A DNA stretch of 64,000 nucleotides from an uncultured Pseudomonadales bacterium (GCA_964620965.1 CAZUHV010000002.1:117452-181451), one strand, 5' to 3'. Counted from the stretch's first letter, positions 5,178 through 40,333 are shown. The notes: generated from the letters alone by a model not told the origin. A program made the numbers and translations.

Positions 5178-6218
5178 ATGAGAAAAAATCTAAATAATAC
5201 TTTTTATCTTTCTTTCTTGGCAATTTTGTTTGTTCTTGTGTTTTTAGCAACTCCTCAAAAAGCCTCTGCTGCCCAACTTACGGAAGGATATCTCAGACTC
5301 AATAGAATGAAAGCTTCAACTGCTACCGGAGGCACAGTCTGTGCAAAGATGGCAACAACAGCTGGAACAGACGCTAAAATAAAGGTTACTTTCCCAACAG
5401 GCTTTACAGTAAACTCTACTGCAAGCAACTGGACTGTTACCACTTCCAATCTTCCAGAAAATGGAAGTGCAATGCCAGGTATAGATACTGCAACTGCAGT
5501 ATCTGGACAAACAGTAACTTTCCCGATCTCAGACATTTCTTCAAACTCAACACTATATTGTTTTAACTTTGCAAGTTCTAGCACATTAACTACAAGTACA
5601 GCAGGAAACGACAAAACGGGTTCTATCTCTGTCACTACAAGTGGTGACTCAGAAATAGATGGTGGTATTTATGCAACCTCAGTTATCTCTGATGACCAAG
5701 TAGTTATTACTGCTACTGTTCCTGCAACATTTAGTTTCGCCTTAGGATCTAACACTCAATCACTCGGAACACTTTCAACTGGAAGTGTAAGCTCAGGATC
5801 TGGTGTGAGTGTCACAATTGGAACTAATGCTGGTAATGGTTGGATTGGTTGGGTACTCAGTGCAAATGCCGCCCTTAATTCTGCTGCAACAAGTGATGCT
5901 ATTTCTACGACTGGCTCTGTAGATAACTCCCCTAGCACTCTCTCTGCTGGAACCGAAGGATATGTTTTAGATGCAGATCTTACTTCCGATTCTGCGACAA
6001 GTGGCACTGGAAGTGTGACAATTGATGCAGAATATAATGGCACAACAACAAGTCAAGGTGGAACCCTTTCGACAACATTTACAGAATTCGCCTCTGCAGA
6101 TGGACCAACAGATAGTGACGTTATCACACTTGTCCCTAGAGTTGCAATTTCTGCCTTAACCCAAGCTGCTACAGATTACACTGACACTCTCACAGTTGTT
6201 GCTGCTGGACACTTCTAG
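5178..6218 (+). CDS. secreted Ser/Thr/Gly-rich cell-surface protein, paralogue A
   Basis: Signal peptide MRKNLNNTFYLSFLAILFVLVFLATPQKASA|AQ, then low-complexity beta-rich sequence ending ...ATDYTDTLTVVAAGHF. The C-terminal roughly 100 aa are paralogous to 8864..9907. Confidence 0.7.
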   Translation: MRKNLNNTFYLSFLAILFVLVFLATPQKASAAQLTEGYLRLNRMKASTATGGTVCAKMATTAGTDAKIKVTFPTGFTVNSTASNWTVTTSNLPENGSAMPGIDTATAVSGQTVTFPISDISSNSTLYCFNFASSSTLTTSTAGNDKTGSISVTTSGDSEIDGGIYATSVISDDQVVITATVPATFSFALGSNTQSLGTLSTGSVSSGSGVSVTIGTNAGNGWIGWVLSANAALNSAATSDAISTTGSVDNSPSTLSAGTEGYVLDADLTSDSATSGTGSVTIDAEYNGTTTSQGGTLSTTFTEFASADGPTDSDVITLVPRVAISALTQAATDYTDTLTVVAAGHF

Positions 6219-6241
6219 TCTTTATGTCATAGTATTCAAGT

Positions 6242-7375
6242 ATGAGGATTCGACTTAAGTACATATTTTTTTTGTTTTTCTTAATAGCACAGTTATTCTT
6301 TGTTAATACAAAAATTGCTTTCGCCCAAACTGAAACTAGTGAACCAGAGGCAACCGAATCTGCTCAAGAATTTATATATATCGAACCAAATTCAGAACCA
6401 CTCAACCTTACAATTTCTCCTGCAACCTTACTATTAGATACAAAACCAGGAAACCCAGTAAATACTTCTTTTCAAGTCTTTAATAATTCTACAGAAACTG
6501 AGTATCTTAAAATTGACTTACTCACATTTGGTGCAAATGCCACTGGAGACGAACCGGTTATCAAGCCCTTCGAACTAGGAGATGATTCCGAATCTTGGCT
6601 CACTTTTGATAATAAAAACATAACAGTTCAACCAAAAACTTGGAAAACTGTTCACGTAACCTTTTCTCCACCAGAATCTGCAGCGCTTTCATACTACTAT
6701 TCAATAGTAATTTCAAGACAAACCTCACAAACCATAAAAGAAGGAGAAACAAACGTTGTTGGAGCTCCTGCTTTGCTATTACTTGCTACTGTTCAATCTC
6801 CATACGCAAAGCAAGAGTTACAGTTGAAAAGCTTCAAAACTACAAAAAAAATATTTGAGTTTCTTCCTGTGGAATTTGAGTTAACAATACAAAATACAGG
6901 AAATGTACATCTTGCTCCAGTTGGTAACATATTTATAGATAGCAGCAGAGAAAAAGATGTTGGATTGATTCAAATAAACAGAACAAATGGTCTCATACTT
7001 CCAGGCTCAACAAGAACATATACACTAAGGTGGGAAGACGGATTTCCAGTTTTTGCCGATAAACAAGTAGATGGCTCTATAGTAACTGACTCAGCCGGAA
7101 ATCCAAAGAAAGAACTCAAATGGGATTTTTCTAAAGCAAACTTTTTTAGGTTTGGAAAATACACTGCACACCTTTTATTTATTTTTGACAACGGAGAAAG
7201 AGACGTCCCAACAGAGGCTAAACTATCATTTTGGGTCCTACCATATAGGATACTTGTTATCTTTGGTTTAGTTGGAGGTACAACTATTCTTGGGATAGCC
7301 ATCCCACTAGTACTTATATTTAAACGTATGCGAAAACAAAATGAAAAAAAACAAACTCCCACTGAAACTAAATAG
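6242..7375 (+). CDS. secreted beta-sandwich protein with a C-terminal transmembrane anchor (CscA-like, DUF916/DUF3324-type architecture)
   Basis: N-terminal signal peptide, a LTISPATLLLDTKPGNP...FQVFNNS segment, a TIQNTGNVHLAPVGNIFID motif, and a C-terminal TM ILVIFGLVGGTTILGIAIPLVLIF followed by a basic tail KRMRKQNEKK. Confidence 0.65.
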   Translation: MRIRLKYIFFLFFLIAQLFFVNTKIAFAQTETSEPEATESAQEFIYIEPNSEPLNLTISPATLLLDTKPGNPVNTSFQVFNNSTETEYLKIDLLTFGANATGDEPVIKPFELGDDSESWLTFDNKNITVQPKTWKTVHVTFSPPESAALSYYYSIVISRQTSQTIKEGETNVVGAPALLLLATVQSPYAKQELQLKSFKTTKKIFEFLPVEFELTIQNTGNVHLAPVGNIFIDSSREKDVGLIQINRTNGLILPGSTRTYTLRWEDGFPVFADKQVDGSIVTDSAGNPKKELKWDFSKANFFRFGKYTAHLLFIFDNGERDVPTEAKLSFWVLPYRILVIFGLVGGTTILGIAIPLVLIFKRMRKQNEKKQTPTETK

Positions 7376-8279
7376 ATACTTTCATATTCTTTTTCTATTT
7401 ATTTTTATATACTTCTTTCCAAAAGCAGTATTTGCACAAGAATCTCTTACTGTTTCGCCTGCATACCAAGAAGTAGTTCTTGAACCTCAAAATGATTCTA
7501 GTGAGTTCAGTATCTCTATCAGAAATGACACAAAAATAGCAGAGTCTTTCGAACTATTTGCTGTTGAGTTTCCTTCTGGTGCACAGTTTGGATCACTTGG
7601 ATTTATTGATTTTGATTCAAGCGATATTAAACAACAGCCGAGCTACATTTCATTTGACACTCAACAGTTTGTTGTTGATCCAAATACTTCAAAAGAAATT
7701 CACGCTACTATCGAAAACCGAGCAAGCTTAAAACCAGGTGGAACGTATCTTTCTGTTATTATTCGATCCTTGAGAGAAAAAAATAGCTCTGGGCAAACAA
7801 TTCTTCCAGCATTCGCTTCTCAACTTCTAATTCGAAAAACTGAAGGTGAGATAAAAAATATTTCACTTAAAACTGTCAGCGATACAGACAAAATTATATC
7901 ATTTACGATCCCAAAAACTGTAAAACTGTTATTTGAAAATAATGGAAATGTACACCTCATTCCTAGAGGAGAAGTGCGAATCGATACAGTATTTGGTGAA
8001 ACAATAAGTCAAGGAATAATTAATGAATCATCTTCTTATGTATATCCAGATAGTCAAAAAGAAATTACTGTACAGCTTTCTCAAGTAAATAAAAAAATAC
8101 CAATCTCGCTCATCACAATTACTGCTTTTGGCTCAGCCAATTCTATAGAATATAGAGCAGAACACTCATATATTTATATCAACCCATACTTTGTGGGCAT
8201 ATCCGCAACACTTTTTTTCTTGTTTATACTCTATGCATTCAAAAAGATAAAAAAACAACCAAAACATGAAACTGAATAA
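7341..8279 (+). CDS. second CscA-like secreted protein with a C-terminal TM anchor; paralogue of 6242..7375
   Basis: Signal peptide, LTVSPAYQEVVLEPQND...FSISIRNDT, ENNGNVHLIPRGEVRID motif, and C-terminal TM YFVGISATLFFLFILYAF plus KKIKKQ. It overlaps the previous gene by 35 nt. Confidence 0.65.
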   Translation: MKKNKLPLKLNRYFHILFLFIFIYFFPKAVFAQESLTVSPAYQEVVLEPQNDSSEFSISIRNDTKIAESFELFAVEFPSGAQFGSLGFIDFDSSDIKQQPSYISFDTQQFVVDPNTSKEIHATIENRASLKPGGTYLSVIIRSLREKNSSGQTILPAFASQLLIRKTEGEIKNISLKTVSDTDKIISFTIPKTVKLLFENNGNVHLIPRGEVRIDTVFGETISQGIINESSSYVYPDSQKEITVQLSQVNKKIPISLITITAFGSANSIEYRAEHSYIYINPYFVGISATLFFLFILYAFKKIKKQPKHETE

Positions 8280-8844
8280 AGTTATTTTAATCTGTACAAC
8301 TGTATTTTTTGTTATACTTTTTAGTATATACCTGTGGGGAAATACACCAAATTCCGGTGAAATCATTAGCACAGCTCAAACCACACAATTAAATGAAGAT
8401 CTAGAAATTAAAACTAATACAGAAGAAAAAAATTCTTGTTTTTCATTTTTTCATGATCAAAACATTACTCAAATCAAAACAGAAGAATTCGATACAACTT
8501 GTATCATTCGAGCAAAAGTCGAAAAACCAATTGGACAACTGAGCATTTCTGTTGTTCAAAATACAGAAAATAAAAACTTTGACTTAGCAGAACAAACCGG
8601 AGTAACCTTACGAAAAAGTTTGCCCGATATCTACACACAAGAAATAAATATCCAAAACAAGCCAAAATTTTTTGAAAACGATAGCAATTTCAACTCAATT
8701 ATTTTTACTAATAAAACAGAAATTACAGGATTTTTTACTCAATCGAACAAACTCCTTACCGTTTCTATCCACGATGTTGCTACAATAAATGAAGAAGTTA
8801 TTTCTATCTTTGAAGAAACTCTTGATGGAGTAACAATTTATTAA
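8266..8844 (+). CDS. hypothetical signal-anchored protein
   Basis: A 192-aa ORF with an N-terminal hydrophobic segment ILICTTVFFVILFSIYLW. It overlaps the upstream gene by 14 nt, which suggests an operon. Confidence 0.5.
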   Translation: MKLNKVILICTTVFFVILFSIYLWGNTPNSGEIISTAQTTQLNEDLEIKTNTEEKNSCFSFFHDQNITQIKTEEFDTTCIIRAKVEKPIGQLSISVVQNTENKNFDLAEQTGVTLRKSLPDIYTQEINIQNKPKFFENDSNFNSIIFTNKTEITGFFTQSNKLLTVSIHDVATINEEVISIFEETLDGVTIY

Positions 8845-8863
8845 GTACCACTAAACAAAAGTA

Positions 8864-9907
8864 ATGAAGCCAAAACTGCTGTTTTTATTATTATTCTTTG
8901 TAATACCAGCTAGTACAAATTATAAACTAGACGCACATGGTATTGGATCGGGTGGGGGAATCACAAATTCATCATCTTATTCATTACTAGGAACAACCGG
9001 AGAACAATCTAGTAAAACAGAGGGATCTTCATACTCTGTTTGGTCTGGGATTCAATTTGCCGAAATGGCAAATACTCCACCTGCACCAACATTTGTTAAT
9101 GAAGATTCATACTATAATAAGCTAAGAATTACACTTGATACTGGAAATAATCCAACAGATACCCTCTACGCAATAGCAATTTCTACAGACAGTTTTACCA
9201 CAACAGAATATGTACAGTCGGACAACACTGTTGGCTCCACACTTGGAAGTGAAGATTGGCAAACATATGCAGATTGGGGAGGAAGTAGTGGTGAATTCGT
9301 TGTAGGGCTTGATGCTGATACAACCTACCAAGTAAAAGTAAAAGCAATTCAAGGAGATTACACAGAAAGCCCATATGGACCAAGTGCTTCTGCAGCAACT
9401 TCCGCTTTAACACTTTCTTTTGATATTGATGTCAGTTCAATTGATGAGGAAACAGCCTCACCTTATGAAGTTTCTTTAGGTTCACTCAATCCCGACACTG
9501 TTATCACGGCAACAGATAAAATATGGCTCGATCTTTCAACAAATGCAAATAATGGAGCAGTCATTTATGTGGCTGGCAGTACCGGAGGTTTATACAGCAA
9601 CTCTACAGCACACACTATCTCTGGTGTCAGTGCAGATTTAACTGGAGTATCAGAAGGATTCGGCTTAAAATCTGCAAGTGTTGCTGAAAGCAGCGGAGGT
9701 CCCTTAACTGCTGTTTCTCCATATAATGGTAGTAGTGATACTGTTGGTACTATAGCAACAACACTTGCATCTTTGTATAATACCTCTACTGCACCAATTA
9801 GTGCTGCAAGAGGGTCAATAGATATCAAAGCAAAGGCACAGTCACTCACACCTTCTGCAACAGACTATGCTGAGACTTTGACGTTCATTGCCGCAGCTAA
9901 TTTTTAA
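8864..9907 (+). CDS. secreted Ser/Thr/Gly-rich cell-surface protein, paralogue B
   Basis: Signal peptide MKPKLLFLLLFFVIPAS. The C-terminal region EGFGLKSA...YNGSSDT...ATDYAETLTFIAAANF aligns with the C-terminus of 5178..6218. Confidence 0.7.
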   Translation: MKPKLLFLLLFFVIPASTNYKLDAHGIGSGGGITNSSSYSLLGTTGEQSSKTEGSSYSVWSGIQFAEMANTPPAPTFVNEDSYYNKLRITLDTGNNPTDTLYAIAISTDSFTTTEYVQSDNTVGSTLGSEDWQTYADWGGSSGEFVVGLDADTTYQVKVKAIQGDYTESPYGPSASAATSALTLSFDIDVSSIDEETASPYEVSLGSLNPDTVITATDKIWLDLSTNANNGAVIYVAGSTGGLYSNSTAHTISGVSADLTGVSEGFGLKSASVAESSGGPLTAVSPYNGSSDTVGTIATTLASLYNTSTAPISAARGSIDIKAKAQSLTPSATDYAETLTFIAAANF

Positions 9908-9982: not shown

Positions 9983-11833
9983 ATGTTTAATAAAAACCAC
10001 TGGTTAGCTGGTCTTGTTTTTGGTAGTGTACTCATGCTCTTTTCAGTGGTATTTTTTAATCCAATTTTTGCTGCAACAGGAATTAATGAAAACATACATT
10101 TTCAAGGCAAAGTAGTAAATACAGACGGCACAAATGTAGCAAATGGAGACTACGATTTTGTCTTCAAACTCTATACTGTAGATTCTGCGGGAACTGCCAT
10201 TTGGACAGAAAATAGAACTTCTGCAAACCAAGTCACAGTCACCGATGGGGTCTTTAGCGTAGACTTGGGATCTGTGACTGCACTACCTGGTTCCGTTGAT
10301 TTTAATACCGATAATATTTACTTGGGTGTTGAATTTAACGGGGATGGAGAGATGAGTCCAAGAATCCAATTTACTGCTGTTCCATATGCTCATAATGCCG
10401 CAAAAGTTGGGGGACTTACTGTTACAGATACAACAAGCACTCTTACAATTCCAAGTGGTATAACTGTTGCTTTTTCTGGCTCAAATGATACAACTTTTAC
10501 AACATCAGGATCTACTAACGTAACACTCCCAACAACCGGTACACTTGCAACTCTTGCAGGGAGTGAAACTTTGACAAACAAAATTATTGGAAACACAGGT
10601 CTTACTTTTTCTGGAGCAACTACAGACATTACAACAGGAACCAACGAACACCTTTCAATTATGCCAAATGGAACTGGAAATGTTGGTATTGGAACTACCA
10701 ATCCATCAGAAAAACTGTATGTTTACAACTCTGTTAATAATCAAACTGGTTTTGTAGTTAGCAATGATAACTCCGGCAGTGCAGCTCAAGCCTTCTTTGC
10801 TATTGGTAGCAATCCTACAGCGAATCCATGGAATGGAGTATTTTTTCAGCACTATGGAGCAAACTTTACACCAAATGGCTTAAGAATGCCTAGTTCAACA
10901 ACAATAATTGGTGGTGGAAGCAATGGCTTAAGTATTGGAACAGATAATAGTTCTTCACTAAACTTTTTTACTAGTGGTGTTGCAAGTGGGGCAGATATGA
11001 CGTTAAATAGTAGCGGAAACTTAGGTATTGGAACAACAAACCCTACAGAACTACTACACGTTAATGGAAATATTAGAGCTAATGGATCAGTGGCTGGAGT
11101 AACAACTCTAGCAAGCTCTGGAGACTGGACTTGGACTGCGACAACACCAAACATTACAATTAACTCTGCTGAAGTTTTTACTATCACTGATGGCACTGAT
11201 ACTTTTACAGTTAATACCTCCGGCTCATTATTCTCATTCTTAGACGGATCTTCAAATGGGTTTACATTTGACGCTGATACAGGCCCTCTATTCGCTGGTA
11301 CAGCAAGACCTGCAAGAAAAGAAAAACTCGTACCAGAATATCCAGGTGCAGTACTTACCGGAGACGGAAGTAATAATACTGGAACTATGACTTCAGACTT
11401 CTGTGAACAAGGTGCACATGCCGATATCCCTGATATAAACACCACAACTTGTAATACGTCTGGAGATATCCACAACTACTACAGCTGGACTACCAATCAA
11501 GGATCTGCTCAAGATTATGACATTTGGGTGCGCTGGAGAATTCCAGATAACTTCGCCGTATGGGATTCAAACCCAATCCAAGTATATGCAAAACGTACAG
11601 ATACAACTAATAATGCAGTTACTGCGTTCGTATACGACACGGCTGGTGCCTTAAACAATGCCGGAGGCACCCAAATCGCTGGAACAACTTGGACGCAAAC
11701 AGCTATCTCTCTTTCTGGAGGCACTTGGACTGCTGGCTCTTATGTAACTATCAGAATAACCGTAGCCGCTGATACTGGAGGGGATAGTGTGCAAGTTGGA
11801 GAAATAAACCTTAACTACCTTACGAATAATTAG
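9983..11833 (+). CDS. secreted fibre-like surface protein with repeated GN[VL]GIGTTNP motifs
   Basis: Signal peptide ...PIFA|ATG. The repeats GNVGIGTTNPSEKLYV and GNLGIGTTNPTELLHVNGNI are of the type seen in tail-fibre-like proteins. The sequence is Thr/Ser/Gly-rich and 616 aa long. Confidence 0.7.
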   Translation: MFNKNHWLAGLVFGSVLMLFSVVFFNPIFAATGINENIHFQGKVVNTDGTNVANGDYDFVFKLYTVDSAGTAIWTENRTSANQVTVTDGVFSVDLGSVTALPGSVDFNTDNIYLGVEFNGDGEMSPRIQFTAVPYAHNAAKVGGLTVTDTTSTLTIPSGITVAFSGSNDTTFTTSGSTNVTLPTTGTLATLAGSETLTNKIIGNTGLTFSGATTDITTGTNEHLSIMPNGTGNVGIGTTNPSEKLYVYNSVNNQTGFVVSNDNSGSAAQAFFAIGSNPTANPWNGVFFQHYGANFTPNGLRMPSSTTIIGGGSNGLSIGTDNSSSLNFFTSGVASGADMTLNSSGNLGIGTTNPTELLHVNGNIRANGSVAGVTTLASSGDWTWTATTPNITINSAEVFTITDGTDTFTVNTSGSLFSFLDGSSNGFTFDADTGPLFAGTARPARKEKLVPEYPGAVLTGDGSNNTGTMTSDFCEQGAHADIPDINTTTCNTSGDIHNYYSWTTNQGSAQDYDIWVRWRIPDNFAVWDSNPIQVYAKRTDTTNNAVTAFVYDTAGALNNAGGTQIAGTTWTQTAISLSGGTWTAGSYVTIRITVAADTGGDSVQVGEINLNYLTNN

Positions 11834-11835
11834 AT

Positions 11836-14800
11836 ATGCATATGCTCTTCCAACAACTCGCAAAAATTAAACTTAAGAAAAAAATACTTGTTAAGTCAAC
11901 AAGATTTGTTTTAGCACTCTGGTTTATTATTTCTAACTTTTTGTTTGGCTTTCCAATTGACTACATTTTAAAAACACCAGTTGTGATTCAACAAGCGAAA
12001 GCAAATTCAAACACCTATGACTTTACTGACTGTGGCAGCACCTGTGATACTGACACCGGGTGGTGGGCATCTGACGATGATGTCGATCAGTTTCCGTTTG
12101 GTGGAGTTACAGCAAATCGAAACACACATGCAGAAGCAGACGATACAAACTATTCTAATATGGCAAACTCAGATGATACTTATGCAGTAGCAACTAATCC
12201 AAGCACTGGAGATGAAGTATTCAGCTGGTTTGAAATGACCATTACTGAAACGCCAAGCACTATTAAACAACTTGACTTTACTTTTGAAGGGTATCCTAAC
12301 ACTACTGCCTCACCATTTCAAATTTATGTCAAAACCGCCGCTGGTGCCTATGAATCTGATGCTTCATGGACTGCGCTTTCTGGACCAACAACAATTGCAG
12401 CTGGTACTGACACAACGATAACTCGTACACTCAAAGATAATATTACTGATTACATCGATGGAAATGGCAAAATAGTTTGGGGTGTCTACCAATCTGTATC
12501 AGCGCTTACCGTTAATATCGACTACGCAAAAATTGACGTTACATACCATCCAGTTGATTTAGAAGGATACAGATGGAGAAATGATGACGGCAACGAAACT
12601 GGCGCTACTTGGCTGGCAGATCAAGACAGCAATATTACTCAGCCAACAGCAACCAATACTAGACTGCGCACACTCATTAACTCAACGGGTACCGCTGATC
12701 CAGATACAAGCCAATATAAACTTGAATATAAACGTTCTACTGACAGTACTTATGTCCCAGTCGAGGTCACAACTCCCACAGATGTCACACCGACAATAGA
12801 ATCATGGTCTTCTGGTGCTTCAACTACAACTAATGCGTCTACTCATGCCATCACAATGCCTTCTGGAATTACTGCTGGTGATTTGCTTATCATAGTTTTT
12901 TCAACAGATGGTGTCGCAGATATTACCATCACAGCTGGTGATTGGATTGAACTAAGTCAAGCTCAAGGAAGTGGCGTTTCTAGTGGTATTTTTTATAAAT
13001 TTGCAACGGGCTCTGACACTGCAACGGTTGCAACTGGTTCAGAACAGACTTCCCATATTGTCTATAGAATTAGTGGTGCTAGTATGCCATATATTGCCCA
13101 AACAACTGGAAATAGTACTAACTCAGATCCACCAAATTTAGATACTGGCACTTCTCGAAACTATTTGTGGCTTGCTACTGCAACACATGATTCTACTGTT
13201 GTTGCATCAGCTGCGCCAACAAACTACTCAAATCTACATACCCAAGCTGCTGCAGGAACTGGTGGAGCATCTACGAGTACTGCAGAACGAGCTGCAACTG
13301 CCTCAAGCGAAAACCCAGGTACTTTTACTAGCAATACAGAGCAATGGGTTTCTTTTACAATTGCAATTCCTTCTTCAAGTATGGGAATACATTGTGCAAC
13401 CGCTCCAACAACCCAAGGTACAACAAGTGTTGTTATAAACTATCCAACGGATATAGCTGTCGGTGATCTCATGGTTCTGGGCATTGCAAATAAACATACT
13501 CCAAATGGTCCAACAACTCCCACTGGCTGGACTGCTGCCTCAAACTACCAAGCCTCAGGGAGTGGAGGTATTGATGGTCTAGACAGTGGAAGTGTGTACT
13601 CGTCAGTTTATTACAGAATTGTTGATGGTACAGAAAAAGGTACTTTTACTGTGAGTGTTCCCTCTGGAAATGCATCTATTGGCAGAATTTTGACGTATCG
13701 AAAGGAAGTCGGCAAAGAATGGGATGTTGCCATGTCAAATGGATCAGACAATACTCCAGATACCTCTTGGTCAATCACTGCTGGTTCTGACCCTGGAATA
13801 ACTGCTGGAGACATGGTCTTAGCGGTCAGTGCAATGAATACTGATCCCTATGGATATAACACACAAACCTTAGCAGCAACTGGCGTAACTTTTGACAGTG
13901 CAGAAAAAGAAGTCGGTGAGACAAATAGTACTGCTGGTAATGACCTTGAAATTGTTTTTTCAAACCATTTTGCGATTTCTGGCACCAGTAGTGCTGCTCC
14001 AACATACACTATGACAGCTAGTGGTTCTACTGCCAGTGGTCCTGCTGGAGCAACTGTTTTTGTGAGAATCCGCCAAAGAACTGCTCCAATCACTTTGTCT
14101 GCAAGTACTCATATTACTGCAAGTGGTGATAATACTACTGCTTTATTAACTCCTCCAGCAGGAAAAACTACTGGTGACTTTCTTACTGGTCGTATGCAAG
14201 ATGATGAAAATCCCGCAGATACTATTAACCTCTCTTCTAGCCAATACACAGAACTAGAATGGAATATTATTGCAACAAGTACGGCTGTGAATGATGAAAT
14301 TTACCAATTTAGAGTAACTGTAGGAGGTGTGCCAATTACTACTTACTCTGTAACACCACAGTGGACAATCGGTACTGCTGGAACGGCAGACCTTAATCAA
14401 ATTCATTACCGCTGGAGAAATGATGATGGCACAGAAGGATCATCTGGCTGGTACGATTCAAACTGGGTGTATAGAAAAAAGCTCACAATTGATAATACAG
14501 ATGTGGCAGGTAGTTCTAACCTCACCAACTTTCCTGTCTTGATTAACTATACACACGCTGATTTAAAAGATACAACCAACTCTGGTCACGTAGCACAATC
14601 AGATGCTGGTGATATTCTGTTTACTAACTCTGCGGGTACTAAACTTGACCATGAAATTACCAAATATGTGCCATCAACAGGTCAAGTAATTGCTTGGGTA
14701 GAAGTTGATGTTTTAGACTATGACGATGACACAGAAATTTATATGTACTATGGTTACGGTGCGGCTAGTGACCAATGGAATATAAGCGGAACTTGGAGCA

Positions 14801-16584
14801 ATGGCTATGTTATGGTGCAACATTTTAACGAAACTTCAGGAACTCACTTTGACTCTACTTCCAATAATAATGATTCAACCTCTGTGACTGTCACAACACA
14901 AGGTACTGCCACAGCCCAAATTGATGGAGCTGATGATTTTAATGGTTCTAATAACTATGTTGCCGTTGGTGATTCCAATTCACTAGATGTTACAAATTTT
15001 ACTATTTCTGGATGGTTTTCTATTGATACATTTCCTGGAACAGATCAATACAATAATATTCTTGATAAACAAGCCTATTTCCTTGAAGTAACAGATAACG
15101 ACGAATTTGACTGTGGAGTATACGATGGAAGTTTTTCTGAACATAACTCTGGTACCGCAAATCTCTCAACCGGAACTTACTACTATCTTGCCTGTGCATA
15201 TGATGATACGGGGGATACTGTTAGATTATATAAAAATAGTACTGAAGTATTAAATGAAGCTGCAACCAAAACACCAGCAACAAATAATATCGATATTGGT
15301 ATATACGCTCTTAGCGGAAATTTAGGCCAACAGCTCGACGGTCAAGCTGATGAGCTGGTTCTATCTAATGTCGCCCGTTCTGCGGATTGGCTCAACACCG
15401 AATACAACAACCAAAGTAATCCTGGAGTTGGAGGCTTTCTCACCAGTATAGGCACTGAAGAAACCGAAGGAACGGGCGCAACCTGGTTAGCGAATGAAGA
15501 CACGGCAGTTACAGATATTGCTAAAGAAACAAACGTAAGAATAAGATTTATGGTTTCTAATGAAGGTGGTGCTACATCAGATGCTACAGCATACCAATTA
15601 GAAGTTGCAGAAACTGGTACTTGTAGTGGTGGAACATATGCTGCTGTCCCAACTGACACGAGTGGAGACTGGCAAGTTTCGGCCTCAGCACATTTTACAG
15701 ACGGAGATCCCACAACAAATATTGCAAGTGGTCTAGCAGATGAAAACACAACTTTTGTTGCTGGACAAATTAAAGACACTGGCAACACTACAGGAAATAT
15801 CACATTAGCAGATACAGAATTTACAGAAATAGAGTTTTCCATTCAAGCTACAACCAATGCTACTGACGGTGGCTCGTACTGCTTTAGATTAAATGGTGCA
15901 GATACGTTCACTGAATACGCACAAGCCACACTCGAGGGAGGGGCAAGCCCCGTTTTTTCACTGAGTGCCTATCGATTTTATGATCAAACAGCTTCAGAAA
16001 ATGTCACAAACCCTTGGGGAAATCCTACTATTGCTGAAAATACACTACTTGCTCTTCTGCCAGCAACTAACACTCCTCCAGGAAATAGAGAAGATATAAG
16101 ACTAAGAGTTGGCATATCAGTTAGTACTGGGGCACTCTCCGCAACGAGTCAACAATTTAAATTACAATACAAGTCAGGCACTGATGCAAACTGTACTACA
16201 GGGTCATGGACTGACGTTGGAACGTCTATTAGTAGTGAAACATGGAGATACTCTACAACAGGTATCACTGACGGTACAACGCTGACAGCTCTTAAATTAT
16301 CTGGAAGTGATGTATTAGGCGTGTATGTAAAATCAAATCCAAGCGCAACAAACCCAAATGCTGTAGCTGTTGGAGAAACAGTTGAATATGATTTCAACTT
16401 TAAAGGCTTTAGTGCTGCATCAGCAACCACATATAGCTTTAGAGTTGTCGAAAGTGATGGAACTCCTTTAACAACATACACCTACTGTCCGACTCTTACA
16501 ACAAAAGCCGCTACAGAACAAGAATTACGGCACGGAAACGTGTTTTCTAATGAGACAGAACAAGGATTTACCCGTGCAAATTAG
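11836..16584 (+). CDS. giant (1582 aa) surface protein with Ig-like repeats and DUF2341 and LamG/concanavalin-like modules
   Basis: N-terminal TM FVLALWFIISNFLFGF. Repeated domain-start motifs appear: EGYRWRNDDGNETGATW, IHYRWRNDDGTEGSSGW and GTGATWLANEDTAV. A DUF2341-like segment reads WVYRKKLTIDNTDVAGSSNLTNFPVLINY...GDILFTNSAGTKLDHEI...IYMYYGYG. A LamG-like segment follows: FNGSNNYVAVGDSNSLD...FTISGWFSID...YYLACAYDDTGDTVRLYKNS. Confidence 0.8.
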   Translation: MHMLFQQLAKIKLKKKILVKSTRFVLALWFIISNFLFGFPIDYILKTPVVIQQAKANSNTYDFTDCGSTCDTDTGWWASDDDVDQFPFGGVTANRNTHAEADDTNYSNMANSDDTYAVATNPSTGDEVFSWFEMTITETPSTIKQLDFTFEGYPNTTASPFQIYVKTAAGAYESDASWTALSGPTTIAAGTDTTITRTLKDNITDYIDGNGKIVWGVYQSVSALTVNIDYAKIDVTYHPVDLEGYRWRNDDGNETGATWLADQDSNITQPTATNTRLRTLINSTGTADPDTSQYKLEYKRSTDSTYVPVEVTTPTDVTPTIESWSSGASTTTNASTHAITMPSGITAGDLLIIVFSTDGVADITITAGDWIELSQAQGSGVSSGIFYKFATGSDTATVATGSEQTSHIVYRISGASMPYIAQTTGNSTNSDPPNLDTGTSRNYLWLATATHDSTVVASAAPTNYSNLHTQAAAGTGGASTSTAERAATASSENPGTFTSNTEQWVSFTIAIPSSSMGIHCATAPTTQGTTSVVINYPTDIAVGDLMVLGIANKHTPNGPTTPTGWTAASNYQASGSGGIDGLDSGSVYSSVYYRIVDGTEKGTFTVSVPSGNASIGRILTYRKEVGKEWDVAMSNGSDNTPDTSWSITAGSDPGITAGDMVLAVSAMNTDPYGYNTQTLAATGVTFDSAEKEVGETNSTAGNDLEIVFSNHFAISGTSSAAPTYTMTASGSTASGPAGATVFVRIRQRTAPITLSASTHITASGDNTTALLTPPAGKTTGDFLTGRMQDDENPADTINLSSSQYTELEWNIIATSTAVNDEIYQFRVTVGGVPITTYSVTPQWTIGTAGTADLNQIHYRWRNDDGTEGSSGWYDSNWVYRKKLTIDNTDVAGSSNLTNFPVLINYTHADLKDTTNSGHVAQSDAGDILFTNSAGTKLDHEITKYVPSTGQVIAWVEVDVLDYDDDTEIYMYYGYGAASDQWNISGTWSNGYVMVQHFNETSGTHFDSTSNNNDSTSVTVTTQGTATAQIDGADDFNGSNNYVAVGDSNSLDVTNFTISGWFSIDTFPGTDQYNNILDKQAYFLEVTDNDEFDCGVYDGSFSEHNSGTANLSTGTYYYLACAYDDTGDTVRLYKNSTEVLNEAATKTPATNNIDIGIYALSGNLGQQLDGQADELVLSNVARSADWLNTEYNNQSNPGVGGFLTSIGTEETEGTGATWLANEDTAVTDIAKETNVRIRFMVSNEGGATSDATAYQLEVAETGTCSGGTYAAVPTDTSGDWQVSASAHFTDGDPTTNIASGLADENTTFVAGQIKDTGNTTGNITLADTEFTEIEFSIQATTNATDGGSYCFRLNGADTFTEYAQATLEGGASPVFSLSAYRFYDQTASENVTNPWGNPTIAENTLLALLPATNTPPGNREDIRLRVGISVSTGALSATSQQFKLQYKSGTDANCTTGSWTDVGTSISSETWRYSTTGITDGTTLTALKLSGSDVLGVYVKSNPSATNPNAVAVGETVEYDFNFKGFSAASATTYSFRVVESDGTPLTTYTYCPTLTTKAATEQELRHGNVFSNETEQGFTRAN

Positions 16585-17191
16585 AATAATTACTTTTGCA
16601 ATATTTTTTCTTTTTTTAGTGTTTATAACATACAACTTGTTTTTTGTTCCAGATGATCATTCAAAATCAGAAGGGTCAACTCTCGCTCTTTCAAGTGATG
16701 GTTCAAAAACAGATATATTTATTCAAGATAGTGAGACTCTCATACCTATCTCTACAGCAAGTGCAAATCATAATGAAGCATTCTCCAGAGGAGACTTTAT
16801 AGTCTGGATAGAAGAATCTCAATATAAAAGTGAAAAAGTTGTCGTTCGGTATCATGTTCCTACACAAACTACTATCTACATAACTTCACTTGGAAGTTCA
16901 CAGAAACCTAAAGTTAGTACAGAAGGTTATGTTGTATGGCAAGAATGGATAGATGAAACCTGGCAGATTTTTTACTTTGATGGTTTGACCAGCAAACAAA
17001 TAACTCACAGTAGTTCGAGCTCTCTTAATCCAGATATTTCTGGAAATACAGTTGTGTATGCTAGAAAAAATGAATCTAACACATGGGAAACTATTGAATT
17101 TTCCCTTAAAAATAACACTGAAAAAGTGGTTAAATCTGGAATTGAAGCTAAAAATCCCTATTTTTATGGCACAAAATTATTTTTTCGCTGA
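16550..17191 (+). CDS. hypothetical signal-anchored protein (beta-propeller-like fragments)
   Basis: A 213-aa ORF with N-terminal TM IITFAIFFLFLVFITYNLFF. It overlaps the end of the giant gene by 35 nt and ends with TGA. Confidence 0.5.
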   Translation: MRQNKDLPVQIRIITFAIFFLFLVFITYNLFFVPDDHSKSEGSTLALSSDGSKTDIFIQDSETLIPISTASANHNEAFSRGDFIVWIEESQYKSEKVVVRYHVPTQTTIYITSLGSSQKPKVSTEGYVVWQEWIDETWQIFYFDGLTSKQITHSSSSSLNPDISGNTVVYARKNESNTWETIEFSLKNNTEKVVKSGIEAKNPYFYGTKLFFR

Positions 17192-19897
17192 AAAATGAAT
17201 TTCATGTAAATATACACTGATTTCGGTATTTAGATAAAGTAAAAAATTTCCCAAAGAAAGCACTAAAAATGGAATTGCATAGTGTTTTTCATATACAAAA
17301 ACAAATAGTATTGCAGTTACTAATGACAAAAGTAAATTAATTTCCAATGCGCTGTCTAAAAAGTGCTTTAACAAAGATATTACTAACGAAAAATAGGATT
17401 TCTGAGCACTCTCTTTTTCAAGTTTTAATAGAGTACTTTCTTCAACTTCTGGCTTAAGATCAATCGACTGTGGAGCATAACCAGGAGCTACAACAGAAGC
17501 TGTAAGTGCTTCATCTAAGCTTTTTGGTACAAAAACCAATCCGTTTCTATGAACCTGTATCAGACTCTTTATCTGACCAGCAGAATCTTGAACTGTCACA
17601 ACTGCATTTCTCACCAACCGCTCAGTCTGAGTATCAACAAGCTTAATTTTATAATACTGACTTCCACCAACAACTAAGGTCTTCTTTTTACTAAAAATAA
17701 ATCTATGGTGGTGCAAAACAGAATGCAGTAATGTTCTTACCGAAAAATGAGATCGGGTTAAAAATCCAAACAAAGTAAGCGGGGTAGTAATACATAAAGT
17801 TAGCAGTGTAATCAATGTCAGCGTTGCATGAGACTCAGATTCCTTTTTCAAAAAGGTAACAAATAACTCAGTCTTTATTTTTGCTGTTTCAACATGATAT
17901 TCCACAGTTTTAAAGTATGGAAAGTATTCTTTTTCTAAATACAGTTGTGGGTAAAAAGTTGCGTTTGTAGTGTCAAATTCTAGAGATTGAGGGACATACC
18001 CAGTACTTTCAACCTCAATAAAATACTTGCCTTTAGGAAAAATAATGTCAATGCTACCTGCTGAGTTTGTAACATATTTTTCAAAAAAATCATATAATTT
18101 TGTAGTCTCATTATATTTTTTTATGTTCACTTTAGCTCGTTCAATCGGAAGTTTTGAGGCAGAATCATATACAGAAAAAGGTTGTACTACTAACAACTTT
18201 CCTAGACTAATATTTTTTTTGCTTCCAGCAAATGATTCTAAAGTTAGATACACCTGATATTTTCCAGGAATGTGTGGAATGGTCAAAGACCCAGACCAAA
18301 TCCCGTTTTGGATTTGGCTTATCTGAGATCCATACTGTGATTCTCCAAGTACTAAGCCTAAATCAATATCTGTTATTGTTTGTAGATATAAAGTTACCGA
18401 CTTTGTATCAAAACCTTCTAACAGTGGCAAAATAACTTCAAGCTCACTTCCTGCAGGAATGAGTAAATATTCCGGATCACCTAAGGAAGGAGAAAAAATA
18501 GGTTTTCCTTTCGAACTAACTGTAAAAGAAGTAAGTGTTACTGGATATGAGTCACTTGCTGTTAAAAATGCTAGTCGTTCAGAGCTACTTTGAACTCCAT
18601 TTTGAATTGAACTCAATAAGACATGGTATTCTTTATCTGGAAACAAATTATCTAAAACCAAGCTGTGGACCTTCTGTATTTGTAGTGACTCAAACACCTC
18701 TAACTTGGTCCCATCAACTGAGTAAACCGTCGCAGTTAGAGTACCAGGAGTATTCAAAATAACCTGCAACTCAGCAGATGTGCTCTCTACCGCAACTATT
18801 TTGTATGATACATACCCCGAAGATGCAGTTGTAGTAACTGCTGTTTGGCTTGTTGTACTTGCAGCCGGCGAAGAAGTTGGGGTAGGTGTACTCCCAGTAT
18901 TTGAAGTCGAAGATCCAGAAGAGCTTGAAACATACTTATAACTCACTTCACTTGTACTGTCTGTTGTGGTAACTGGATTTGTAATACGACTATTCACTTG
19001 AGCTGTTACTTCAGAGGACCCTGTATATTGAGCTGTAGTTTTTAGTATAAATGAGACTGTTTGGTTTTGAGTATTACCAGGAATTGCTGAAATCGTCCAA
19101 GTAATTGTTCTGTTGGTTAAGTTGATAACCGGCTCTGTATTATTATAAGCATCAGTGGCACTCCCAGCTACGTACTCAAAAAGGTCTACTGATGGAGAAC
19201 CAGCTCCAAAAATCGTCCCTTGTTCCCATTCTGCGACAATCGTTAGAGGTGTTGAAAAATCGTACTCAGTTCCATAAGTGATCACATACTCAATCTGCGT
19301 ATTCTGAGGAATTTGAGTTACTGAATCCTGCGTACTAATAACTGCAGAAAAATCAGAAATAGGAGGCAAAACTTGACCTGTAACAACTATTTGATCGTTT
19401 GAAACTACTGGAACAACTATGTCGACTAGATCAACTTGAGAACCACCTTGCCTTGTTTCTAACTGCCAAATATATTCACTAGAACTTCCTTGAGTACTTG
19501 GGTTGTTAGTTATTCCTCCAGTGATATAAAAACCATACGTTATTCCAACAGATAGATCCCCACTTGGAAACACTACTGTCTGCCCAGATTTTTGAACTGC
19601 TGTTCCAATACCTGGCCATGCAGTAATACCACTTGGTAGACCTGAAGTTGAAACTGTATATGAGCTCGCTACACTTGATATTGTCCATAAATTTGAAATC
19701 GTAACAGCTACTTGATCTTCAGTAACTCCTACACTTGAAACTGTTGCTGTAATCAAAACTGGAAGAGGAACACTTGAAACCTTATTTCTCTCTGGTCGAA
19801 CTGTTGCATTAGAAAAATCTGCCAAAACAGACTGGGGAATAAACAAAAAAAAGACCAACAAAAAGAAAGCTGTGACTCGACAGATAAGTTGTTTCAT
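17177..19897 (-). CDS. large (906 aa) secreted/anchored surface protein with carboxypeptidase-regulatory-like (Cna-B-like) domains and C-terminal TM helices
   Basis: Signal peptide MKQLICRVTAFFLLVFFLFIPQSVLA, long Ser/Thr-rich tracts, and a KYFIEVESTGYVPQ-type beta-sandwich. C-terminal hydrophobic segments flank a His-rich loop (LHSVLHHHRF). It is convergent with the plus-strand cluster. Confidence 0.75.
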   Translation of the reverse strand: MKQLICRVTAFFLLVFFLFIPQSVLADFSNATVRPERNKVSSVPLPVLITATVSSVGVTEDQVAVTISNLWTISSVASSYTVSTSGLPSGITAWPGIGTAVQKSGQTVVFPSGDLSVGITYGFYITGGITNNPSTQGSSSEYIWQLETRQGGSQVDLVDIVVPVVSNDQIVVTGQVLPPISDFSAVISTQDSVTQIPQNTQIEYVITYGTEYDFSTPLTIVAEWEQGTIFGAGSPSVDLFEYVAGSATDAYNNTEPVINLTNRTITWTISAIPGNTQNQTVSFILKTTAQYTGSSEVTAQVNSRITNPVTTTDSTSEVSYKYVSSSSGSSTSNTGSTPTPTSSPAASTTSQTAVTTTASSGYVSYKIVAVESTSAELQVILNTPGTLTATVYSVDGTKLEVFESLQIQKVHSLVLDNLFPDKEYHVLLSSIQNGVQSSSERLAFLTASDSYPVTLTSFTVSSKGKPIFSPSLGDPEYLLIPAGSELEVILPLLEGFDTKSVTLYLQTITDIDLGLVLGESQYGSQISQIQNGIWSGSLTIPHIPGKYQVYLTLESFAGSKKNISLGKLLVVQPFSVYDSASKLPIERAKVNIKKYNETTKLYDFFEKYVTNSAGSIDIIFPKGKYFIEVESTGYVPQSLEFDTTNATFYPQLYLEKEYFPYFKTVEYHVETAKIKTELFVTFLKKESESHATLTLITLLTLCITTPLTLFGFLTRSHFSVRTLLHSVLHHHRFIFSKKKTLVVGGSQYYKIKLVDTQTERLVRNAVVTVQDSAGQIKSLIQVHRNGLVFVPKSLDEALTASVVAPGYAPQSIDLKPEVEESTLLKLEKESAQKSYFSLVISLLKHFLDSALEINLLLSLVTAILFVFVYEKHYAIPFLVLSLGNFLLYLNTEISVYLHEIHFSAKK

Positions 19898-21403: not shown

Positions 21404-21967
21404 ATGAAAACACATAATCCAGAAGTAGAGATCAACCTAGAAAATTTCGAAGAACAATACAGAACTATTACTGCAAGGATTCGACCGTTACTAACCGTTA
21501 GAAATCCACAAAATCTCATAAATGGCATTACTCCTCAGGAACTTGGTCAGTTACACAATATTGCACAATTTGATGCAAAAACTCAGGACTTATTCAATCA
21601 GTTAGTTTCTGGAAAAATAACTAATGAATGGAAAGCGTTTGCTATTTTTACTCGTTTTAAAGATATAAGTCTTAAAAGCTTTCAACAAATGACAGAATCC
21701 CAAAAAATGAAACTTGCCCTAGAAGCTTTAGCTCTAGCTACTGCTGCTAAATATTACCTTGCAAGGTTATATCTTTCAGACAAGAAAAAATACTTTATTA
21801 TGGTTGAATATATGGGTGATATTGTTCCTTCATATTGGACGGAACTTGGTGATGCAGGGGCAAGCTCTCTCCATACCTGCCTCACTACTCCCGCTCAAAG
21901 CAGAACTTCCAAAGATGAATGGATTGTCTCAGCTTTATCTGGAAATAACGTGCGACTGCATATTTAG
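21404..21967 (+). CDS. hypothetical protein
   Basis: A 187-aa ORF. A TGaTACAAT extended -10-like element at 21389-21397 lies 6 nt before the ATG. No motif was recognised. Confidence 0.5.
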   Translation: MKTHNPEVEINLENFEEQYRTITARIRPLLTVRNPQNLINGITPQELGQLHNIAQFDAKTQDLFNQLVSGKITNEWKAFAIFTRFKDISLKSFQQMTESQKMKLALEALALATAAKYYLARLYLSDKKKYFIMVEYMGDIVPSYWTELGDAGASSLHTCLTTPAQSRTSKDEWIVSALSGNNVRLHI

Positions 21968-23187
21968 GCTAGCTGCTTGTTATTTTTATAAGATTCGGCA
22001 ATTTTGGTATACAACTGAATAATCTCATCCTTTGTTGGATTTGAAGAACAACTTTTAAGTATTCTTCTTGCTAATGGACCTTTTTCTAAAATGGTTTGCA
22101 AAATCTGAGCAAACTCTGAATGTTGCAACCGTAACTGTTTCATAAAAGGGGAGAGTATTATTTGTAATAATTCTTGAGCTCTAACTGGTTGTGTAATACC
22201 AAACTGTTCTAAATACTTTTCATTTGAAATAATCGCAAGTTCACCATCTTTAATAGTAGCAGTAAGTATTTCATACAATTCATCTGTAGGAACAGTTTTT
22301 TGTGCTTCAAATGACATCCATCTTTCCAAAACTAACTCATTTAAAATAAATACTACTGCTGATGAAACCGCGATATCTACATCAGGAGATTCCTGTGCAT
22401 CGATAAGTCTAATCTCTAGTGTATTTCTATCAAATCTTGCTATACAACCTCTAGAATTGAGCTGCTCTGTTTGTAAAATTTTCTCTTTGTCATAAGGAGC
22501 TATATCTGTATACATGCCTTTTAGCATTGCTTGATAAGAAGCAAAATCATAGATTTGTTCAGGAATAATTTTTCCTGTTATAGAAGCAACCTTTTTTTGA
22601 TTTGTTCTATACACTTCTAAACGACTATCTATAAAACCTGTATTTTTTCCTTCCAAAAAAGGAGATGATGCAGCCAACGCAGGAATAAGTGGCAAAACTA
22701 ACCTAATTCCAGCTAATAATCTTGCGAATTCTGCTTCAGTGTTAAAAGGAATGTTTATGTGTACACTTTGCAAGTTTGCAAAACCATGAGTATAACAGTT
22801 AAAAACAGTATGGTATGCAAGATAGTGCTCATGGTATTTTCCTGGCCAAAGTTGGGTTTGTGTTTTTGGATCCATAAATGGATGAGCTCCTGTTGGCAAT
22901 AGCAAGGCTGAAAATCTATCAGCAATTACATTACATTTTTGCATTGCAGTATGAAACTGATCTGCCATTTCTTTTGAAAGCACGCCTGGTTTTGATACCT
23001 TGAATTCAATTACATGATTGACCAATTCATTGGACCAAGTTATTGGTCCATCTACAAACTCAACGCTTGGCTCACCATTTATAGCTTCAAGAATTTTGTC
23101 TGCAACAGAACTTATCTCAAAAGAGTTTTTTGAAACAACTGCTGTTTCTATTTCAATACCAAGTGGAGTTTCGAGCAAATTTTTCAT
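21964..23187 (-). CDS. carboxylate-amine ligase of the glutamate-cysteine ligase family 2 (GCS2/YbdK-like)
   Basis: LQSVHINIPFNTEAEFARLLAGIRLVLPLIPALAASSPF and NLQSVH...P are characteristic of GCS2. Length is 407 aa. Confidence 0.7.
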   Translation of the reverse strand: MKNLLETPLGIEIETAVVSKNSFEISSVADKILEAINGEPSVEFVDGPITWSNELVNHVIEFKVSKPGVLSKEMADQFHTAMQKCNVIADRFSALLLPTGAHPFMDPKTQTQLWPGKYHEHYLAYHTVFNCYTHGFANLQSVHINIPFNTEAEFARLLAGIRLVLPLIPALAASSPFLEGKNTGFIDSRLEVYRTNQKKVASITGKIIPEQIYDFASYQAMLKGMYTDIAPYDKEKILQTEQLNSRGCIARFDRNTLEIRLIDAQESPDVDIAVSSAVVFILNELVLERWMSFEAQKTVPTDELYEILTATIKDGELAIISNEKYLEQFGITQPVRAQELLQIILSPFMKQLRLQHSEFAQILQTILEKGPLARRILKSCSSNPTKDEIIQLYTKIAESYKNNKQLA

Positions 23188-23217
23188 AATTCGAGCCTAA
23201 ATTACCCATAAAAAAAT

Positions 23218-39313: not shown

Positions 39314-40333
39314 ATGAATAAAACAAAACTTTTGTCTTTACTCATGATTGCAACCGGAATCGGTTTAGTCTTAAGTAAACCAATTGGAAACGCAAATGCT
39401 GAAACTGTTTGGCCAACTTCCCTAGCAGATTGTCAAGCAAGATTCCCTGAAGGAATTAGTTTTTGCCACGCAACCCATGCAGAAAACAATCCATATAATT
39501 TCCATTATAGCCAACCTTGTACTGCTGCTTTTGGCAGTGGACATGGTAACAGTGGTCATTTTGAAGAGGATGGTACTCCTGCAGCCGGGCATGAATTTCC
39601 AGAAATAGGAACAGCAGATTACTTTACTGACGACAGATCTTGTGGCCAAGATGAACCAGTTTGTGAAGAAACAGTAACCTGTTCCGATGCTTGTAGAGTA
39701 GAAGATGAAACCATTAGAGGCAACTGTGGACCAATTGTTTGTGAAGCAAATGCTCCAGAGGTTGAAACTTGTCCTTCTGAGTGCGGATATCAAGGTGGTT
39801 TAGTATCAGATGGTGAATGCGGATATATCGAATGCTCAGCTACAGAAAATTGTGAAGAAGAGCCTACTCCTACTCCAACCCCTACACCAGTAAATAATAC
39901 TAAAAATTCATTTTCTACAATTGACCCAAGCTGTGACTCAAATGCAGTAACTGCAATCGAAAAAATTACAGAAAATGGTCAGAATAAAGCAAATGTAAGA
40001 GTTGTGTTTAAATACAACGGTGTTGAAAAAATTGCGTTTACAGACACAAACGGTGAAGCAAAAGTCTCCTTTGACTACACAGGTGATAACTTCGTAGACG
40101 TTATGCCTGATGGCTTTGCTTCCGATGCACACTACATAACCAAAGAAACAAATTGTTCCGAAACTCCAAGTGAAAACGGACAAGTTCTTGGTGCTTCAAC
40201 AGAAGGTCAAGTTTTAGGTGCAACAACCTATGCTGAGACAGGTGTCGCTGAAGATGTTATGATGTCTATACTAGGATTAGCTGGAGCAGGTATGTTCTCT
40301 ACTGGCTTAGTGTTGAATGTCAAAAAGAAGTAA
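39314..40333 (+). CDS. Cys/His-rich secreted surface protein with a C-terminal sortase sorting signal
   Basis: Signal peptide LLSLLMIATGIGLVLS. A Cys-rich N-terminal domain of about 20 Cys is followed by a PTPTPTPTP linker and a beta-sandwich. The C-terminus has YAETG, then the hydrophobic stretch MMSILGLAGAGMFSTGLVL and a KKK tail. Confidence 0.7.
   Translation: MNKTKLLSLLMIATGIGLVLSKPIGNANAETVWPTSLADCQARFPEGISFCHATHAENNPYNFHYSQPCTAAFGSGHGNSGHFEEDGTPAAGHEFPEIGTADYFTDDRSCGQDEPVCEETVTCSDACRVEDETIRGNCGPIVCEANAPEVETCPSECGYQGGLVSDGECGYIECSATENCEEEPTPTPTPTPVNNTKNSFSTIDPSCDSNAVTAIEKITENGQNKANVRVVFKYNGVEKIAFTDTNGEAKVSFDYTGDNFVDVMPDGFASDAHYITKETNCSETPSENGQVLGASTEGQVLGATTYAETGVAEDVMMSILGLAGAGMFSTGLVLNVKKK

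Follow-up and report, generated by a model that had tools for sequence, protein, structure and literature searches.

How secreted proteins without an anchor of their own might be held at a bacterial surface is the question raised by a gene cluster in CAZUHV010000002.1:117452-181451 (assembly GCA_964620965.1), a 64,000-nucleotide stretch of DNA that was analysed at its full length and is called the window below. Two genes of the cluster, P1 and P5, encode secreted proteins that end in the same signature, which the first-pass annotation had taken either for a relative of the WxL wall-binding motif or for the β-signal of an outer-membrane barrel, keeping a new family-specific C-terminal tag as a fallback. 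Our preferred reading, which we hold at about even strength, is that P1 to P5 form a conserved surface module of Patescibacteria (candidate phyla radiation, CPR) that functions in the manner of the WxL/WxLIP (Csc) complex but with a client domain that is new. Most likely the cluster serves to tether proteins to the surface and does not encode an outer-membrane barrel. Much of bacterial diversity belongs to Patescibacteria, which live attached to other cells, and to our knowledge few genes have been assigned to their surface, type IV pili aside. The five genes and the shared domain are laid out as follows.

5178..6218, + strand: P1, 346 residues; signal peptide (residues 1-31), N-terminal immunoglobulin (Ig)-like domain (about 32-178) and shared C-terminal domain (179-346)
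5712..6215, + strand: shared C-terminal domain of P1, residues 179-346, with the terminus ATDYTDTLTVVAAGHF-COOH and the motif at 6174-6215
6242..7375, + strand: P2, 377 residues; signal peptide, two Ig-like domains (PapD-like two-domain fold), transmembrane helix at about 335-358 and basic tail
7341..8279, + strand: P3, 312 residues; paralog of P2 with signal peptide, Ig-like domains, C-terminal transmembrane helix and basic tail
8266..8844, + strand: P4, 192 residues; N-terminal membrane anchor and an extracytoplasmic part of about 160 residues
8864..9907, + strand: P5, 347 residues; signal peptide, three S-x-N-Y-x-L mini-repeats, FN3-like domain and shared C-terminal domain (178-347)
9395..9904, + strand: shared C-terminal domain of P5, with the terminus ATDYAETLTFIAAANF-COOH and the motif at 9863-9904

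A strictly C-terminal domain shared by P1 and P5

The two open reading frames (ORFs) and their common signature are real, and the likeness spans the entire C-terminal half of both proteins (about 170 residues), beyond the tail motif. The C-terminal halves are 29% identical over 153 residues (BLASTP, E = 3e-7), and the profiles of the two families, built from 112 and 120 sequences, align at 98.7% in hhalign (E = 2e-16, 158 columns). The EG[YF] and YNG matches that had been noticed farther upstream (TEGYVLD/SEGFGLK and EYNGTT/PYNGSS) fall inside this alignment and are conserved in both families. Inspection of the translations places Sec-type signal peptides at the start of P1 (...PQKASA/AQLTEG) and of P5 (...FFVIPAS/TNYKL); neither protein has a membrane anchor, lipobox or sortase signal of its own.

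The two families are large and their ends are tightly constrained. Clustered at 90% identity (E <= 1e-3), the P1 family comprises 1480 clusters and the P5 family 897, with named members from Microgenomates, Roizmanbacteria, Moranbacteria, Andersenbacteria and the 'Patescibacteria group'. The best 120 matches to P1 are 56-100% identical to it, include genomes named as Microgenomates, Moranbacteria and Andersenbacteria, and have in common, in their listed C-termini, the ending ...DYTDTLTVVAAGxF. Residues D333, Y334, D336, T339 and F346 are invariant in the P1 alignment (47 homologues); the P5 family never varies at D334 and Y335 and keeps T340 and F347 in at least 90% of its sequences. When 1.84 billion representatives were searched with a two-sequence profile of the domain, a family of 722 clusters at 50% identity emerged. 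Of the 150 best representatives, 149 have the domain ending no more than three residues from the C-terminus, and the final residue is F in 127 and Y in 18 of the 150. Counted from the C-terminus in 145 representatives (50% identity), D occupies position -14 in 96%, Y -13 in 99%, [DE] -11 in 93%, T -10 in 72%, [LIW] -9 in 89%, T -8 in 92% and [FY] -1 in 100%, for a consensus end of A-x-D-Y-x-[DE]-T-[LIW]-T-[VIFL]-[VI]-[AG]-[AST]-[GA]-x-[FY]-COOH. This terminal conservation is far above chance expectation.

The domain also closes signal-peptide-bearing proteins of 552-1641 residues. Among the eight loci from different lineages that we compared (the window and L069-L075), one contains an otherwise identical gene cluster in which the P5-type protein is 1300 residues long (L075:1310-5212), carries two DUF2341+Laminin_G_3 units and retains the C-terminal domain at its end. 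This fusion and the other long proteins fit a logic of payload plus C-terminal anchor. A domain-only short form, akin to small WxL proteins, was considered and dropped, the short representatives being mostly contig-edge fragments.

Whether the domain is a WxL domain was examined against a reference set from Firmicutes. Through the DUF916 signature NQIDKxxxYFDLK we fetched 68 loci, which supplied 50 small WxL, 10 large WxL and 55 WxLIP proteins; a sample of these was verified in Pfam (WxL, E = 1e-64 to 1e-70; WxLIP_PGBD and WxLIP_HBD). The WxL hidden Markov model (HMM), the check that the first-pass annotation had proposed, returned no match to P1 or P5 at E <= 1 in Pfam or NCBIfam, and Pfam found WxL in 0 of 47 P1 homologues. 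In hhalign the CPR domain stayed at or below 1% against Firmicutes WxL alignments in every combination of full-length, domain-limited, merged and 150-representative profiles with small, large or mixed WxL in local, low-mact and global modes, whereas small and large WxL, the positive control, united at 99% (E = 2.5e-18). HMMs of the two WxL motifs, made from the 50 WxL proteins (D.RGT.aGW.L.V and Y.ttLTW.L.D.P, which in WxL lie about 70-110 residues apart), scored the CPR families no better than shuffled sequences, with the best motif-1 matches off the expected position, and jackhmmer between the CPR domain and WxL gave zero cross-hits in both directions. Membership of the WxL family is thus rejected by Pfam and NCBIfam, hhalign, motif HMMs and jackhmmer alike. 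Since neither P1 nor P5 is covered in this region by any Pfam or NCBIfam model, nor are the 47 P1 homologues by any Pfam model, the shared C-terminal domain is a new, previously undescribed family.

The domain could nonetheless be a true WxL domain that has diverged past sequence detection, sharing both ancestor and fold with WxL but having Val, Phe or Ile in place of Trp; direct peptidoglycan binding, which is reported for WxL, would then be expected of it, and P2 and P3 would stabilise it. Its outward traits are WxL-like: it has about 170 residues, is C-terminal in 149 of 150 representatives, follows signal peptides and has WxLIP-like neighbours in all eight loci, and a size of 160-190 residues and a strictly C-terminal position are those of WxL (PMC9772566). 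The partner protein is moreover homologous to WxLIP, as set out in the next section. The best local hhalign path repeatedly sets AAtDYTDTLTV against YtttLTW, but with P = 0.06-0.36; at low stringency 'TNA.nGW..WV' lies colinear opposite 'D.RGt.aGW.L.V', and Trp occurs at position -9 in 9% of representatives. Judged from sequence, this likeness to the WxL motifs appears to be visual only. All of the statistical tests failed (hhalign P = 0.06-0.6), the solved WxL chain 9i25_A is missing from the 50 listed Foldseek matches of P1, and WxL motif 2 has 5-10 residues after it (D.P..), whereas the CPR domain stops at its aromatic residue. We regard a hidden WxL identity as unlikely.

The predicted fold bears on the other early reading, in which P1 and P5 would be outer-membrane β-barrels and the terminal ...x-F a β-signal for the β-barrel assembly machinery (BAM). 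The sole support for it is the alternation of hydrophobic residues ending in Phe. AlphaFold2, given the 47-sequence alignment, models P1 as an all-β protein of two soluble sandwich domains with a predicted local distance difference test score (pLDDT) of 92.3, and no barrel is found among the 50 Foldseek matches listed, all of which are Ig-like or other non-barrel folds. P5 contains an FN3-like domain, the window holds monoderm wall genes including a sortase, and the lineage, as judged from the named homologues, is Patescibacteria, a group considered to have no outer membrane. Omp85 did not turn up in the roughly 40 ORFs of the window that were scanned. The barrel is accordingly refuted for practical purposes, and we give it next to no credence. 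With no WxL profile match and a non-barrel fold, it is the fallback, a family-specific C-terminal tag, that the data bear out.

The top Foldseek matches of the P1 model are MSCRAMM-type tandem IgG-like adhesins and cohesin dyads (E = 1e-7 to 1e-4), which have the tandem β-sandwich architecture in common with P1; TM-scores of 0.2-0.27 and identities of at most 10% mark this resemblance as generically Ig-like, and P1 differs from the MSCRAMM-type adhesins in having no sortase signal. Integrin calf domains, PapG, SafD and BslA are also among the 50 matches listed. Searches of PDB sequences with the P1, P5 and P2 family profiles found nothing significant. The N-terminal Ig-like domain of P1 has two invariant cysteines, C55 and C128, and it recurs elsewhere in the window: in a 906-residue protein at 17177-19897 (- strand), the N-terminal stretch of about 165 residues that follows the signal peptide is homologous to it (hmmsearch, E = 3e-29). 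Because of this homology the P1 N-terminal domain is itself a reusable module. The 906-residue protein does not have the shared C-terminal domain and has several hydrophobic helices at its end.

In P5, the region upstream of the shared domain gives weak FN3 matches, and the mature N-terminus (window 8912-9045, residues about 17-60) consists of three short S-x-N-Y-x-L mini-repeats with Gly-rich turns between them. The mini-repeats are kept throughout the family, with the consensus StNY.L ... StnY ... stnY, and it is conceivable that they serve as strand donors.

P2 and P3 as membrane-anchored relatives of WxLIP

What lies between the paralogs gives the WxL comparison its remaining substance. 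P2 and P3 resemble each other (BLASTP, E = 1e-15) and are remote homologues of Firmicutes WxLIP (DUF916-DUF3324) with a PapD-like fold. Over its full length the P2 family aligns with WxLIP at 97.9% in hhalign (E = 3e-13, 270 columns); without signal peptide and transmembrane segment the alignment stands at 93.6% (E = 2e-7) over 194 colinear columns that run across both domains, and domain 1 alone reaches 92.5% (E = 5e-7). Ten column-shuffled controls of the comparison gave 0.4% or less. The CPR homologue at L069:11076-12110 passes the Pfam gathering cutoff for WxLIP_PGBD (31.6 vs 27.3 bits), P2 of the window itself lies under Pfam detection, and P3 has a weak fn3_5 match. Pfam found no WxLIP_HBD match in the 59 members of the P2 family, and neither PapD_N nor PapD_C is among the 25 Pfam families listed for them. 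The N-terminal WxLIP motif NQIDKxxxYFDLK is absent from P2, where the aligned segment reads P..inLT.SP..l.LeT.PG. The WxL-like wall-binding reading of the locus is supported in part: it fails for the family membership of the client but was near the mark for the locus, whose genes between the paralogs are WxLIP homologues.

The AlphaFold2 model of P2 (pLDDT 91) consists of two β-sandwich domains and a helix at 335-369. Its best Foldseek matches are CfaA, CsuC, FimC, Caf1M, EcpB and YadV (E = 1e-9 to 3e-7), with TM-scores against chaperone-usher chaperones of 0.5-0.59 when normalised to the chaperone; the WxLIP structures 9i25_C ('WxLIP from E. faecium (bound to long WxL)') and 9i1y are matched at E of about 1e-8 (1.6e-8 for 9i25_C). 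In hhalign, FimC and Fim pilins show no relation to the CPR proteins (0.5% or less). Domain 1 of P2 bears a hairpin made up of a strand at 149-159, a loop at 160-176 of lower pLDDT and a strand at 177-184. Its counterpart in pilus chaperones is the F1-G1 hairpin. In the model, residues 149-184 correspond to the long WxLIP hairpin, which is predicted to become the strand that completes the WxL sandwich (Hassan et al., PMC10599100).

The arrangement of the genes is conserved too. All eight loci have P1, P3, P5 and one or two copies of P2 side by side, and a membrane-protein gene of the size of P4 is present in seven of the eight, its homology to P4 being confirmed by jackhmmer in only five (the window and four others); L072 and L073 have genes of 204 residues at the P4 position. 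No family match was obtained for P4, which we consider a candidate fifth component of the cluster. In the window the genes overlap or are separated by gaps of at most 75 nt, a spacing consistent with one operon. A scan of the cluster for promoters and terminators found sites not above those in shuffled sequence.

Proposed tethering or possible polymerization at the cell surface

Because the genes between P1 and P5 encode remote WxLIP homologues, we read the cluster as a monoderm analogue of the WxL clusters with a different client. In the mechanism that we propose, P2 and P3 are type-I membrane proteins, the C-terminal helix and basic cytoplasmic tail serving as anchor, and after export their two Ig-like domains project from the cytoplasmic membrane. 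P1 and P5, which are secreted through Sec, would use the shared domain of about 170 residues as a docking module. We infer that they dock physically on P2 and P3, with a degree of specificity in the pairing, and that the last β-strand (the alternating T-L-T-V-V-A-A) and the free aromatic C-terminus, with its carboxylate, would be the parts that bind the anchored partner. Binding would probably occur by β-strand complementation with the long flexible hairpin in domain 1 of P2/P3 (residues about 149-184), as in chaperone-subunit and WxLIP-WxL complexes. Docking of this kind would tether variable N-terminal domains, namely the Ig-like domain of P1, FN3 of P5 and LamG/DUF2341 of the larger relatives, to the surface of a wall-bearing cell with a single membrane.

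Two known systems invite comparison. One of the closest is WxL/WxLIP (Csc) of Lactobacillales and Bacillales (PF13731, PF06030/DUF916, PF11797/DUF3324; PDB 9i25 and 9i1y), whose clusters combine at least two secreted proteins bearing a strictly C-terminal domain of 160-190 residues with an anchored partner of two Ig domains (PMC9772566, PMC10599100). The CPR cluster likewise has at least two secreted clients with a common, strictly C-terminal domain, next to one or more proteins composed of signal peptide, two Ig-like domains, transmembrane helix and basic tail; some clients carry variable N-terminal payloads, and P2 and P3, detectably homologous to WxLIP, have 377 and 312 residues compared with 320-380. 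The client domain differs in being non-WxL by every sequence test and in stopping at an aromatic residue, whereas WxL has ...LTW.L.D.P plus a tail. The cluster differs in having two WxLIP-like paralogs, sometimes three, where Firmicutes usually have one, and in having the extra membrane protein P4 and no LPxTG protein. The host differs as well, WxL systems being described as almost entirely confined to Lactobacillales and Bacillales within the Firmicutes (PMC10599100, PMC9772566). We found no literature linking WxL/WxLIP or PapD-type proteins to Patescibacteria, and nothing relevant on an identified Patescibacteria S-layer protein or PapD-like system.

The other system is the chaperone-usher pathway (PapD, FimC, CfaA, CsuC, Caf1M). 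It has in common with the CPR cluster the two-domain PapD-like fold of P2, the long flexible hairpin in domain 1, and clients that end in an alternating hydrophobic β-strand with an aromatic residue at or near the terminus. The CPR cluster differs in having no usher family detectable with Pfam or NCBIfam and no periplasm, P2 and P3 being membrane-anchored and not soluble periplasmic proteins, and in the lack of sequence similarity to FimC and Fim pilins. Its clients are predicted to be complete two-domain proteins of about 315 residues, whereas pilins are incomplete Ig folds of about 150 residues.

Several observations weigh against a WxL/WxLIP-like module. Domain 2 of P2 alone matches WxLIP_HBD weakly (33%, E = 5e-4), and the generic fn3_5 model matches P2 domain 1 more often (45 of 59 family members) than does WxLIP_PGBD (8 of 59, E < 0.1). 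Foldseek places the chaperone-usher chaperones slightly above WxLIP for P2. In our reading of the hhalign alignment, the P2 family appears to lack an Arg where PapD has its carboxylate anchor R8. The 57-83% identity of P1 across distant lineages is very high and unusual for a merely displayed adhesin, which hints at a more constrained structural role. Finally, the client domain has no detectable homology to WxL, which leaves the partner protein and the gene order as the basis of the analogy.

The main rival is a polymer formed by donor-strand exchange. In it, P2 and P3 would be true assembly chaperones, tethered to the membrane for want of a periplasm, P1 the major subunit of a surface polymer, either a pilus-like fibre or an S-layer-like sheet, and P5 an adaptor or tip. 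The terminal strand, with Phe as its last residue, would correspond to the F-strand by which chaperone-usher pilins bind their chaperone, and polymerization would swap the strand of the chaperone for that of the next subunit. The P2 fold is indeed closest to chaperone-usher chaperones, some homologues bear the Joint Genome Institute name 'P pilus assembly chaperone PapD', and P1 weakly matches the two-domain adhesin-pilins PapG and SafD in Foldseek (E about 1e-4 to 1e-3). P1 is rich in T, S, A and G and unusually conserved, as expected of a densely packed structural subunit; its end, where an aromatic residue follows a strand of alternating hydrophobic residues, is like that of pilins such as FimA (...ATFKVQYQ), and in one locus (L072) the cluster adjoins a type IV pilus operon. 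A polymer is harder to reconcile with the cluster itself, in which Pfam and NCBIfam find no usher-like or pore protein, and with the permanent transmembrane anchor on P2 and P3, a feature of WxLIP, whose complexes are stable. No similarity in sequence to FimC or Fim pilins was found. In the confident AlphaFold2 model of monomeric P1 the N-terminal strand is packed and no free donor extension is evident, with the caveat that AlphaFold2 can self-complement. On balance, we consider the polymer reading unlikely.

A broader form of this alternative, to which we likewise assign a low probability, treats the cluster as the monoderm, usher-less counterpart of the chaperone-usher systems: P2 and P3 would capture the C-terminal strand and carboxylate of P1 and P5 at the Sec exit and pass them by donor-strand exchange into a polymer. 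An S-layer-like coat has been seen on ultrasmall CPR cells, and the polymer would be that coat or a fibre. If true, the usher-less reading would place the cluster at the core of the machinery for envelope and attachment throughout the Patescibacteria lineage, and it would link WxL/WxLIP complexes with chaperone-usher pili in evolution.

The preferred reading, a WxL/WxLIP-like tethering module, would extend the WxL/WxLIP principle beyond Firmicutes, so far its near-exclusive range. P1 to P5 are among the better conserved surface loci observed here and have no usable Pfam annotation; together, WxLIP/PapD-like P2 and P3 and the new client domain provide a testable model for the tethering of adhesin-like payloads (FN3, LamG/DUF2341). 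The signature …DY-x-[DE]-T-[LIW]-T-Φ-Φ-[AG]-x-x-x-[FY]-COOH can be used to catalogue surface proteins of CPR bacteria.

Neighbouring genes and cell-wall functions

Further genes of the window lie beside the cluster or belong to the cell wall.

9983-11833, + strand: P6, 616 residues; large secreted fibre- or adhesin-like protein
11836-16584, + strand: P7, 1582 residues; large secreted fibre- or adhesin-like protein with DUF2341
40317-40937, + strand: sortase (Pfam, E = 9e-21)

P6 and P7 lie directly downstream of P5, probably in the same operon, and in the window neither has the shared C-terminal domain. Homologues of P6 adjoin the cluster in L069, L071 and L072. DUF2341, which the window has on the separate protein P7, is fused together with LamG to the C-terminal domain in L075. 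NCBIfam gives the N-terminus of P6 a weak match, short of the cutoff (E = 3e-9), to the N-terminal domain found in mosaic adhesive trimer fibre proteins of Bdellovibrio. At L072:1414-13825 the genes run P5-P1-P2-P2-P3-P4, directly downstream of a type IV pilus operon with a T2SSE ATPase, T2SSF and N_methyl pilins.

At 21964-24693 of the window (- strand), the gene of a GCS2-type glutamate-cysteine ligase-like protein adjoins that of a RimK-like ATP-grasp protein, which has an RLAN domain; L071 has a related ATP-grasp gene upstream of the cluster.

Besides the sortase, the wall genes of the window include an L,D-transpeptidase (YkuD), a LytR_C protein and a transglycosylase. Upstream of the sortase, within 39314-40937 (+ strand), lies the gene of a Cys-rich secreted protein of 339 residues that ends in ...TYAETG, a hydrophobic helix and KKK, and this protein is likely a sortase substrate with a non-canonical YAETG sorting signal.

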